From: a virus
Reading direction: 5' to 3' (one strand)
Length of the DNA stretch: 64,000 nt
Virus record (IMG/VR): IMGVR_UViG_3300020048_000018
Span: 1 to 64,000 of that record
Part shown: piece after piece, positions 6,302 to 60,912 of the stretch
How the letters are laid out: each line of letters opens with the position of its first letter
Position numbering within the stretch: position 1 is the first letter of the stretch
Notes under the pieces: model-generated
Seen by the model: the letters and a program-made list of their open reading frames with translations, nothing else
What the model was told of the DNA's origin: nothing
The model's database searches: none
Program-made: the position numbers and the translations under genes

Positions 6302-7117
6302 TTAACCAATTAGTCCTTCACCATTTAGTATCTGAGTTGTTGAAAGACCCATTCTTTGAAGTTCTCCACTCAATCCATTTGCATCCATTTCTGTTACCGG
6401 TGCCCATAGAACATTTGTTTTTGATGCATTTGCAGTAGCCGCAGTACGTCCAGCTACTCCCCCATTAGTTGCTATATTGTAGTTTACATTATATTTAAGG
6501 TTGCAGGATATAATGGAGTAATCTATTTTAAGTAAAGATTCCGATTGGGGTGAACCATATTTAAGAGATAGACCACCAAAGTTTTTTACTTGCATACCTC
6601 TAACATCAAGTCTAAGGATAGGTTCAATAACTGGAGTTACTTCACTGATACCTAACCCCCCTTCTCTTTGTCTTGTATGGAATAGAATTATTTTACAGCT
6701 TCTAAACTTACCTTTAGCACCATTAACTAGATAGTCACCTTTTTTATTATAGAAATGAGTAAGCCAGTCGAAGTGATATTTTTGTACAGAATGGTAGGCA
6801 TCTTCCAACCACATCAAAGAAATTGTTTTACTAAATTTAACTGATTTAAGAATTTCCATATTTAATTCATCATGGCTTTCATATTCTAATGAGGGGAGGG
6901 AAAAATCAACACCATGAACTCTATATGCTACATTGTCGAAAGTTCTAAAATCATCAGGTTTTGATAACTGTTCACCAAACTTTGCTACATAGAAGGAATT
7001 ATTTGAGCCACTTGGCATATCATAGATATAGTTTATTCCATCATACTCAAGGTTAGACATTTGACGCAAATCATCATTATTAAAGGATGCGTAAGCACTG
7101 TCAATTTTTTCTTCCAT
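6302..7117 (-). CDS. Tail tube-like / tube initiator protein (tentative)
   Basis: VHGVDFSLPSLEY...TISLMWLED...YHFDW... pattern resembles the gp19/gp48/gp54 tube fold; adjacent to the gp25-like gene. Confidence 0.4.
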   Translation of the reverse strand: MEEKIDSAYASFNNDDLRQMSNLEYDGINYIYDMPSGSNNSFYVAKFGEQLSKPDDFRTFDNVAYRVHGVDFSLPSLEYESHDELNMEILKSVKFSKTISLMWLEDAYHSVQKYHFDWLTHFYNKKGDYLVNGAKGKFRSCKIILFHTRQREGGLGISEVTPVIEPILRLDVRGMQVKNFGGLSLKYGSPQSESLLKIDYSIISCNLKYNVNYNIATNGGVAGRTAATANASKTNVLWAPVTEMDANGLSGELQRMGLSTTQILNGEGLIG

Positions 7118-24387: not shown

Positions 24388-24430
24388 ACATATATAATAT
24401 ATAGGGTTTTTATAAAAAGTTCAAAACTTT
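24388..24430 (-). promoter_or_regulatory. Conserved phage early promoter, copy 1
   Basis: AAAGTTTTGAACTTT-N-CCTATATATTATAT on the minus strand. Confidence 0.8.
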
Positions 24431-32307: not shown

Positions 32308-32348
32308 AAAGTTTTGAACTTTTCTGAAATATCCTATATATTATATAG
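32308..32348 (+). promoter_or_regulatory. Conserved phage early promoter, copy 5
   Basis: TTGAAC at 32314-19, 17-nt spacer, TATATT at 32337-42. Confidence 0.8.
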
Positions 32349-32356
32349 GAAAGGGT

Positions 32357-32504
32357 AGAAGTTTGGCACAGGTTGCCAGACGTTTTTTGGAGAAAAATAT
32401 GTGGAGTAAAATCCACTACTAGGGTTCAAATCCCTGAACAAGTGGTCGGCACTTGGGTTAATTACCCCTAAAAAACTTGTTGGGTTCGAGTCCCAAAGCT
32501 TCTA
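32357..32504 (+). ncRNA. Atypical tRNA-like structured RNA (~148 nt)
   Basis: 7-bp acceptor-like stem AGAAGTT(32357-63)/AGCTTCT(32497-503); D-arm-like TGGCA-CAGGT-TGCCA; two T-arms (AGGG-TTCAAAT-CCCT and TTGGG-TTCGAGT-CCCAA); additional hairpins; no encoded CCA. Confidence 0.55.
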
Positions 32505-32533
32505 AAGAACTGATAAGATTGGAGGTTAGTAGT

Positions 32534-33859
32534 ATGGAAAAGAAAGCTATGGAAATTTGCAAAACACTCCAAAACTCAGGACATCAAGCACTGTTTGTAG
32601 GTGGTTTTGTTCGGGATAAATTACTTGGAAAAAAAGCTCACGACATTGATATTTGTACAGATGCTCTCCCCACTCAAATAGAAAACCTTTTTTGGAAAAC
32701 TGTTGGAGTAGGAAAAGAGTTTGGTACAATTGTAGTCCCTATGAAGGAGTTTTCTTTCGAGGTTACTACATTCAGAGCAGACTCAAAATCCTCAGATGGT
32801 CGAAGACCTGACAGAGTAGACTTCTCAAAATCTTTTTCCGAGGATTCTTCTCGAAGGGACTTAACCATCAATGCAATTGGGTTTGACCCTATCAAGGATA
32901 CCTTGTTTGACCTCCATGGTGGAGAGTCAGATATAAAAAACAAAGTTATCCGTTTTGTGGGTAATCCCTCAGACCGGCTTGCAGAAGATCGGCTCAGAGC
33001 TTTAAGAGCTATTCGTTTTTCTGCCCAACTTGGTTTTACCATTGAAGAAAACTCTTGGAAAGCCATTTGCGAAATCGGACACGATGATTCTGCCTTGAAA
33101 AATCTTTCATGGGAGAGGATTCGTGATGAGATGATGAAGATTCTCGTTTCAGACTTTCCTGCAAAAGGAATATTCCTTCTTAAGGAATCTGGACACCTTC
33201 ACCATATTCTCCCTGAGTTCGACAACATGTGGTGTTGTCACCAGAGCAAGAGATGGCACAGTGAGGGAACTGCCGCAATCCATACACTTTCTGTTTTGTC
33301 AAAATGTCTTACGAATACCTTTGTTGACAGAATGGCTTGTTTGCTCCATGACATTGGTAAACCCAACTGCTTAGAACTTAAAGATACAGAAGATGGATGG
33401 TGGAAAATCACAAACAAATGCCATGACATCGTGGGTCATTCCATTGCGGAAGTCATTTGTTCAAGATTGAAAATTCCTTCGGCTGAATCCGAAGCAATCT
33501 GTGATGCAGTAAGGTTTCACATGGATGCCCATCACTTGACCGAGATTAAAAAGGTTTGGAAGGTAAGACGATTCATCGGGAAAAAACATTTTTCCACGAT
33601 CATGAATCTCGCCCTCGCAGACGAGCTTGGTTCGATGTCAAAGGAACCCTATGAGTCTTTGACTGTTTTTGTGGATGCACAAAGGGCTTTGTTTCCTGTT
33701 ATGCTTCCGAAGCCTTTTATTACTGGGGATATGCTTATTGCTTCTGGCAAAAAGCCAAGCCCCGAGTTCAAGGCTATTTTGGAAGATGCCTTTAATAAAC
33801 AACTCAGTGGTTCTTCGGAAGAAGAATTAGTAAGAAGATTTTGTAAGAGGAGTAACTAA
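32534..33859 (+). CDS. cca: CCA-adding tRNA nucleotidyltransferase with HD domain
   Basis: VGGFVRD, DIDI, RRDLTINA, EDRLRALRA, ERIRDE, H...LLHDIGK; RBS GGAGG before ATG 32534. Confidence 0.9.
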   Translation: MEKKAMEICKTLQNSGHQALFVGGFVRDKLLGKKAHDIDICTDALPTQIENLFWKTVGVGKEFGTIVVPMKEFSFEVTTFRADSKSSDGRRPDRVDFSKSFSEDSSRRDLTINAIGFDPIKDTLFDLHGGESDIKNKVIRFVGNPSDRLAEDRLRALRAIRFSAQLGFTIEENSWKAICEIGHDDSALKNLSWERIRDEMMKILVSDFPAKGIFLLKESGHLHHILPEFDNMWCCHQSKRWHSEGTAAIHTLSVLSKCLTNTFVDRMACLLHDIGKPNCLELKDTEDGWWKITNKCHDIVGHSIAEVICSRLKIPSAESEAICDAVRFHMDAHHLTEIKKVWKVRRFIGKKHFSTIMNLALADELGSMSKEPYESLTVFVDAQRALFPVMLPKPFITGDMLIASGKKPSPEFKAILEDAFNKQLSGSSEEELVRRFCKRSN

Positions 33860-60785: not shown

Positions 60786-60854
60786 TACGGGAACATTCTT
60801 GAGGGCGGCAGTCTGCAAAACTGTTATTCGTGGGTTCAAATCCCACTTCCGTCT
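60786..60854 (+). tRNA. tRNA-Cys(GCA), degenerate D-arm, no encoded CCA (possible pseudo-tRNA)
   Basis: Anticodon arm GCAGT-CTGCAAA-ACTGT; T-arm GTGGG-TTCAAAT-CCCAC; acceptor ACGGGA/TTCCGT with a 1:72 mismatch. Confidence 0.65.
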
Positions 60855-60870
60855 TTAGAAAAATCGGTAA

Positions 60871-60912
60871 AAAGTTTTGAACTTTTTGAAAATATCCTAT
60901 ATATTATATATG
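60871..60912 (+). promoter_or_regulatory. Conserved phage early promoter, copy 12
   Basis: Consensus match. Confidence 0.8.

Follow-up and report, generated by a model that had tools for sequence, protein, structure and literature searches.

What is the tRNA-like element of 148 nucleotides (nt) that lies in the leader of a phage gene for a CCA-adding enzyme: a tRNA gene carrying an insert, the scar of a disrupted one, a non-decoding mimic, or a regulatory leader? The element is found in the window, that is, the first 64 kb of the 178-kb IMG/VR virus record IMGVR_UViG_3300020048_000018 (34% G+C, estimated to be 69% complete). The record contains 26 near-identical copies of a 43-nt promoter motif, AAAGTTTTGAAC-N12-CCTATATATTATATATGT (for example, at 24388 on the minus strand, 26612, 30440, 32308, 42335, and 60871 of the window), and the copy considered here would start transcription at about 32349. 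The element begins ~8 nt past that point, as a first-pass annotation of this DNA had proposed on the basis of the same promoter copy (TTGAAC, 17 nt, TATATT). The remaining copies have an SD sequence and an ATG downstream, nearly all within a few tens of nucleotides, except for two (128026 and 172576) that lack a nearby start. Directly behind this strong, repeated promoter, the element precedes the cca gene, the product of which combines a PolyA_pol head, an RNA-binding domain, and an HD domain.

Anatomy of the element

The features of the locus, all on the plus strand, are as follows.

32314-32342 (+), promoter copy: -35 box TTGAAC (32314-19), 17-nt spacer, -10 box TATATT (32337-42)
32357-32363 (+), acceptor 5' strand AGAAGUU, followed by U8 at 32364
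32361-32388 (+), terminator-like 8-bp hairpin GUUUGGCA-CAGGU-UGCCAGAC (32361-81) followed by GUUUUUU; extends the D-like hairpin and competes with the acceptor stem
32365-32377 (+), D-like hairpin GGCA-CAGGU-UGCC: 5-nt loop with GG; 4 nt, rather than 1, to the next stem
32382-32398 (+), anticodon arm GUUUU-UUGGAGA-AAAAU, from ARAGORN structures: anticodon GGA at 32389-91, U33, G37
32392-32469 (+), alternative 78-nt insert, enclosed in the minimum free energy (MFE) fold by the stem 32382-90/32468-76
32401-32416 (+), hairpin GUGGA-GUAAAA-UCCAC: class II variable arm or, in the 78-nt reading, first hairpin of the insert
32420-32436 (+), internal T-arm (T1) UAGGG-UUCAAAU-CCCUG: pair probability 0.81-0.97
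32437-32481 (+), domain closed by the 7-bp complementarity AACAAGU/ACUUGUU, continuous with the T1 3' strand
32480-32496 (+), T-arm (T2) UUGGG-UUCGAGU-CCCAA, adjoining the acceptor 3' strand
32497-32504 (+), acceptor 3' strand AGCUUCU and discriminator A, from sequence reading
32521-33859 (+), SD GGAGG (32521-25) and the cca gene (ATG at 32534), encoding a CCA-adding enzyme with an HD domain

Each helix consists of standard pairs without a mismatch, and the loops of both T1 and T2 are canonical. Reading of the sequence and folding of 32357-32504 confirmed the ~148-nt element of the first-pass annotation, with its 7-bp acceptor-like stem (32357-63/32497-503, including one G-U pair) and TTCGAGT T-arm, and located exactly the D-like hairpin with GG, the second T-arm (TTCAAAT), and the AACAAGT/ACTTGTT domain. 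As also noted previously, CCA is not encoded in the element, because A32504 is followed by AAG, and the cca ATG (32534) lies 30 nt 3' of this discriminator. One assignment has to be revised: the hairpin GTGGA-GTAAAA-TCCAC, which had been taken for the anticodon arm, is indeed present but sits at the position of a class II variable arm, whereas the real anticodon arm (32382-98, with U33, GGA, and G37) was overlooked.

Several canonical tRNA features are thus found in the element, namely, a 7-bp acceptor stem, U8, a 5-bp anticodon stem with a 7-nt loop (U33, purine at 37), and a 5-bp T-stem with a UUCRANY loop at the acceptor 3' strand. The latter is T2, which, because it adjoins that strand, is the T-arm of the outer tRNA. 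The D-arm geometry is nonstandard: the D-loop has 5 nt, position 9 is absent, and 4 nt separate the D and anticodon stems. Bacterial tRNA-Ser usually have G1-C72 and G73; the element has A1-U72 and A73 instead. Within 32437-32481, pairing of AACAAGU (32437-43) with its complement ACUUGUU (32475-81) competes with a local fold that consists of hairpins at 32439-55 (loop GUCGG) and 32456-66.

In silico deletion of internal segments restores a tRNA with a GGA anticodon

The first-pass description of a tRNA-derived element with two T-arms, too long for a tRNA, is in agreement with the response of standard tools to the intact sequence. ARAGORN at default settings predicted 0 genes, Rfam families at gathering thresholds (including RF00005) gave no match, and Rfam searches at E<=10 yielded only weak alignments, the best being tRNA-Sec (15 bits) and mascRNA (18 bits). 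The element is not a tmRNA either, as previously stated: ARAGORN -m detected none even when relaxed, and the third acceptor pair is A3-U70, not G3-U70. The relaxed ARAGORN call of a 'tRNA-Gly(ACC) with 72-nt intron' was rejected, as position 37 of its loop is not a purine.

We removed in silico all possible segments of 30-99 nt and reran ARAGORN at default stringency. Altogether, 759 variants were called as tRNAs, 581 of these as tRNA-Ser(GGA). Deletion of 60 nt, either 32437-96 (keeping T1) or 32420-79 (keeping T2), produced a clean class II tRNA-Ser(GGA) of 87-90 nt, with 32401-16 as the long variable arm. Deletion of 78 nt (32392-32469), right after the anticodon, produced a 72-nt tRNA(GGA) with the loop UUGGAAA and the stem GUUUU/AAAAC, in agreement with the MFE fold, in which four hairpins lie inside a 9-bp stem (32382-90/32468-76). 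Because such deletions restore a valid tRNA, we interpret the element as a tRNA(GGA) gene interrupted by an insert that bears a T-arm. The insert is located between the anticodon and the acceptor-adjoining T-arm. The 60-nt reading, with the insert outside the anticodon loop, is as valid to ARAGORN as the 78-nt reading, with the insert after A36; we slightly favor the former because a serine anticodon would hardly be combined by coincidence with a hairpin where a class II variable arm belongs. Most likely, the outer gene is derived from a tRNA-Ser of class II. With UCU and UCC making up 43% of its serine codons, the phage would benefit from a GGA decoder, although codon usage does not discriminate between the readings.

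The predicted fold of 32357-32504 (MFE -46.7 kcal/mol, z = -3.1) and the 759 deletion variants called as tRNAs point to structure beyond chance. Three candidate folds, with the cis anticodon arm, the 32382-90/32468-76 stem, or the AACAAGU/ACUUGUU stem, are mutually exclusive and lie within ~5 kcal/mol of each other; the 7-bp AACAAGU/ACUUGUU stem has zero probability in the RNAfold ensemble, and in RNAfold predictions for the full leader, the acceptor stem is not favored. The ends of the 78-nt insert (GAAAAAU.../...ACCCCU) are unpaired and not complementary. No strand 5' of T1 pairs with AACAAGU, so the insert is not tRNA-shaped and has no acceptor stem of its own. As read from the sequence, T1 stacked on AACAAGU/ACUUGUU would form a closed minihelix of 5+7 bp.

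The element is absent from the leaders of related cca genes

We identified one 100% identical copy of the CCA enzyme (L125), on a Logan contig that is identical to the record over 7.3 kb and thus represents the same phage. The phage is also contained in the sequencing run SRR7760394. The next relatives of the enzyme are 48-55% identical. Five of these (L120, L121, L122, L126, and L130) share synteny and the TATATTAT promoter with the studied phage, and in 5/5 the promoter is followed directly by the SD and cca, with the element absent, which marks it as an insertion specific to this lineage, in a leader that is otherwise short, rather than a conserved cca leader. The insertion site is bracketed by GAUAAG, which is located just 5' of the SD in both L120 and the studied phage. 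The 15-16-kb neighborhoods from three of the five relatives contain no tRNA or T-arm motif. Homologs 5' of cca in related phages, which the first-pass annotation had proposed to collect, were not found among these loci.

More distant sequences gave the same picture. Among 80 IMG/VR phage cca loci, a tRNA lies within 2.5 kb of cca in only 3, and none contains a homolog of the element. No homolog was detected by blastn or megablast against phage records, by a CCA-protein-guided scan of IMG/VR, by nhmmer on 118 + 80 + 20 + 11 loci, or in JGI metagenomes; the 5' part of the element had no match in GTDB genomes, pattern scans found no uninterrupted copy, and no second copy of the insert was found in the same genome. 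A single-sequence covariance model (R1) retrieved only generic tRNA or T-arm matches of <=30 bits, which are nonspecific. Among phage records, IMG/VR, JGI metagenomes, GTDB genomes, and the loci of the relatives, the element is a singleton, apart from the identical copy in L125, the same phage.

These comparisons bear on the possibility that the element is a cis-acting leader that tunes cca expression, either by attenuation at the hairpin 32361-81 and the adjacent U-run or by masking of the SD. The hairpin followed by GUUUUUU is terminator-like and lies ~12-40 nt past the transcript start, and in the MFE fold of the whole leader, AGCUUCUAA is able to pair with the SD-containing UUGGAGGUU. Yet, regional terminator-like matches are not far above the shuffled expectation, and 61.5% of shuffles match the SD pairing, so that masking of the SD by the acceptor 3' strand was rejected as being at chance level. 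Furthermore, the relatives express cca off the same promoter without any such leader element. Hence the autoregulatory or conserved leader that had been suggested earlier is not borne out, and we consider regulation in cis to be very improbable.

Two-T-arm loci in other phages and the origin of the insert

When IMG/VR was scanned for pairs of T-loop motifs separated by 35-60 nt, at least 118 loci matched. About 45 of the 118 matches listed are ordinary tRNAs followed by a 3' fragment (att-site type). The same deletion scan was run on the 73 loci without an ARAGORN call among the matches listed: in 18 of these 73, at least 200 variants restore a tRNA that starts 5' of T1 and ends just past T2, compared to 1/73 in a control with shuffled 5' flanks. 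Some of the 18 consist of a complete tRNA and a truncated neighbor, for example, L078. A perfect outer acceptor stem together with an internal T-arm was found in L053, L061, L091, L052, L018, L023, L093, L083/L036, and L047/L033, and between L047 and L033 the internal T-stem covaries (CAGGG/CCCUG vs CUAGG/CCUAG). Similar two-T-arm tRNA genes are thus present in other uncultured phages. The perfect-acceptor loci, along with L003/L041, are oversized phage tRNA-like genes of 105-185 nt that default ARAGORN does not call.

The closest published description is that of the 'enigmatic' introns of 79-114 nt in tRNAs of Lak megaphages, among which one 'itself may encode a tRNA' (Devoto et al. 2019; PMC6784885). 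Each of the Lak inserts in Table S6 of that work has, toward its 5' side, a small hairpin whose loop is A-rich, and also a T-arm inside an acceptor-like stem (PMC6784885). As in the Lak cases (Table S6 and Fig. 4 of PMC6784885), the element resembles an oversized phage tRNA with a short, non-group-I insert that carries a T-arm-like hairpin, has a small hairpin, with a loop that is A-rich and of the RUAAA type, close to the insert's 5' end, belongs to no Rfam family, and yields the host tRNA upon deletion of the insert. However, the Lak inserts lie directly after the anticodon and are closed by their own acceptor-like stem of 7-8 bp (for example, CUACAUA...UAUGUAG), whereas the ends of the insert in the element are unpaired, T1 lacks a partner strand on its 5' side, and it is just as valid to place the insert between the variable arm and the T-arm. 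By analogy, the element appears to belong with the interrupted or nested tRNA genes that large phages carry, a kind that is known but poorly understood, and is atypical among them because its insert is not closed by an acceptor stem of its own.

In its A-rich loop, the hairpin GUGGA-GUAAAA-UCCAC is similar to hairpins of the Lak and L018 inserts; chance alone yields such hairpins in ~3% of comparable regions. As a family hallmark, the RUAAA-loop hairpin was rejected: among the 73 listed loci it occurs only in L018, compared with 2.2/73 in shuffles, and is thus weak. In L018, the insert of a tRNA-Leu(UAA) begins with the 17-mer UUARCAGAGUAAACUGU (6407-6423), a small hairpin and a near match to the beginning of the published tRNA-Phe intron of Lak; this 17-mer is also found in five other phage contigs (L233-L237), outside any recognizable tRNA.

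The att-site type invites a different account, namely, that the element is a non-functional scar, a tRNA-Ser(GGA) gene disrupted by rearrangement and passively carried in the cca leader, with an origin such as the remnant of T-loop-targeted integration or excision, or the fusion of two tRNA genes, which the first-pass annotation had offered as its alternative. Like a tRNA with a duplicated 3' fragment at an att site (PMC9897764), the element has two T-arms within ~60 nt, one of which is followed by a non-matching acceptor-like strand; the order of T1 and a 3'-acceptor-like strand that mismatches the 5' strand is the layout expected at an att-type junction, and such plain tRNA-plus-fragment duplications make up the ~45 of the 118 listed two-T-arm IMG/VR loci mentioned above. 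The singleton status of the element and its absence from all relatives, the aberrant D region, and a second, degenerate tRNA-like element at 60786-60856 are also compatible with a scar. In the att-site type, however, the complete tRNA comes first and the fragment follows downstream, whereas here only the downstream T-arm and strand complete a tRNA, and neither an integrase nor an element body is present. Moreover, the helices have no mismatches, and the two T-loops are canonical; a perfect 7-bp AACAAGU/ACUUGUU stem lies exactly between the two T-arms; and the site directly behind a strong promoter matches the position of a tRNA gene. On balance, we regard a scar as possible but doubtful.

Proposed expression and processing of an insert-bearing tRNA-like RNA

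The explanation that we prefer, with moderate confidence, is that the element gives rise to an expressed and processed, insert-bearing tRNA-like RNA, which would derive from a tRNA(GGA) gene with a structured insert of 60-78 nt containing the second T-arm. The outer shell, which comprises the acceptor, U8, the GG-bearing D-like hairpin, the anticodon loop, T2, and A73, is valid to ARAGORN once the insert is removed in silico; the 581 tRNA-Ser(GGA) variants, the standard-pair helices, the promoter context, the insertion site, and the 43% share of UCU and UCC all fit. So do the 18/73 listed IMG/VR loci, against 1/73 after shuffling, and the T-arm hairpins of the Lak introns (PMC6784885). Against this reading stand the singleton status, the aberrant D region, the A1-U72 pair and A73 that are atypical for tRNA-Ser, the three exclusive folds within ~5 kcal/mol along with an acceptor stem that is not favored in the full leader, and the degenerate tRNA-Cys-like element of the same genome, which indicates that tRNA decay does occur there.

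The phage encodes proteins that could act on such an RNA. Beyond the window, we identified genes for a Thg1-like protein (genome C1 65537-66004, 88.8 bits) and for an RNA ligase similar to T4 Rnl1 (genome C1 89606-90196, 60.2 bits), which, together with the CCA-adding enzyme and its HD domain, form a putative tRNA repair and maturation set and are in line with a processed RNA. No RtcB, protein splicing endonuclease, or Ro60 was found in the 178-kb record, which is estimated to be 69% complete. In the order of events that we envisage, the 5' part of the cca mRNA would contain the element; RNase P would free it by cutting at 32356/57 and a 3' nuclease by cutting after A32504, whereupon the co-transcribed enzyme would add CCA, as it presumably does for the tRNA-Cys of the phage, which must obtain CCA from the enzyme because its gene does not encode it. 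If the insert is removed, the Rnl1-like ligase of the phage could reseal the nick in the anticodon loop; if the insert stays, the product would be an oversized tRNA-like RNA with two T-loop/GG-loop 'elbows'. Retention is slightly favored because the insert has no self-contained tRNA shape, which is thought to guide excision in other cases.

In several respects, the preferred arrangement resembles that of T4-type tRNA genes, which are co-transcribed and matured by phage or host enzymes: the element is promoter-proximal, has a short 5' leader, does not encode CCA, and belongs to a phage that encodes a repair set comprising an Rnl1-like ligase and the CCA enzyme. In contrast to the T4 tRNAs, which are canonical cloverleaves, the element has 148 nt and two T-arms.

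An alternative fate would be that of an unspliced, non-decoding tRNA mimic, which might sequester, as a decoy or sponge, host nucleases that target tRNAs or factors that bind elbows or minihelices, or might be a dedicated substrate of the CCA/HD enzyme. Two T-loops and two GG loops are consistent with such a role, as are the closed 5+7-bp minihelix that T1 and AACAAGU/ACUUGUU would give, the tRNA-repair gene set, and the location of cca immediately 3' of an element that does not encode CCA. However, the element is not conserved, no defense context was identified, and the 7-bp stem is unpopulated in the predicted ensemble. Y RNAs of the YrlA type from bacteria and phages (PMC4201824) similarly join a foreign structured module to a phage-encoded shell that is tRNA-like in its D and T arms and its acceptor-like stem. 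The YrlA check proposed in the first-pass annotation came out negative, with no Rfam match at E<=10 and no TROVE/Ro60 gene in the 178-kb record (69% complete), and the element, unlike YrlA (PMC4201824), has an intact anticodon arm. We therefore deem a mimic unlikely, and a tRNA(GGA) gene bearing an insert accounts for the anatomy better than the novel mimic or decoy initially suggested.

A bolder version, to which we also assign a low probability, is a functional 'two-headed' tRNA, in which an open acceptor/T2 minihelix would be given CCA by the co-transcribed enzyme while a closed 12-bp T1/AACAAGU-ACUUGUU minihelix would carry its own GG loop. Such an RNA would represent a new class, with a phage tRNA insert outside the anticodon loop, and might serve as a decoy against tRNA-targeting host defenses or be spliced via the Rnl1-like ligase.

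To our knowledge, the literature mentions interrupted or nested tRNA genes in large phages essentially once, as 'enigmatic', and we know of no demonstration of how, or whether, such phage tRNA inserts are removed. The copy described here has peculiarities that would constrain any model, its insert having no acceptor stem of its own and possibly lying outside the anticodon loop. The element is also physically coupled to the gene for a CCA-adding enzyme, in a genome that has an Rnl1-like ligase and a Thg1-like enzyme as well. If expressed and processed, it would be a compact test substrate, with one promoter, one RNA, and one enzyme; if a scar, it would record the way in which phage leaders acquire such inserts or tRNA genes.

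Other tRNA-related features of the phage and its relatives

The one good tRNA of the phage is a canonical tRNA-Cys(GCA) at genome positions 79375-79447, in which CCA is not encoded. An ARAGORN prediction of tRNA-Pro at 133578 was judged to be a false positive, with mismatched stems and an apparent location inside a coding sequence. The second tRNA-like element of the window (60786-60856, plus strand), just 5' of the promoter copy at 60871, has the anticodon GCA and intact anticodon and T arms, scores 27 bits with the Rfam tRNA model (cutoff 29), and shows a U1:C72 mismatch and no proper D-stem.

About 800 nt past the cca gene of another phage (L135, 4587-4783) lie the genes for two tRNAs of unusual length, a 91-nt Ile(AAU) and a 96-nt Arg(ACG). 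In the syntenic relatives L238, L239, and L240, rIIB is followed by small genes, cca, and NADAR/TelA, with G+C contents that range from 30% to 57%, and a TnpB/Cas12f-like gene is located at the end of L240.
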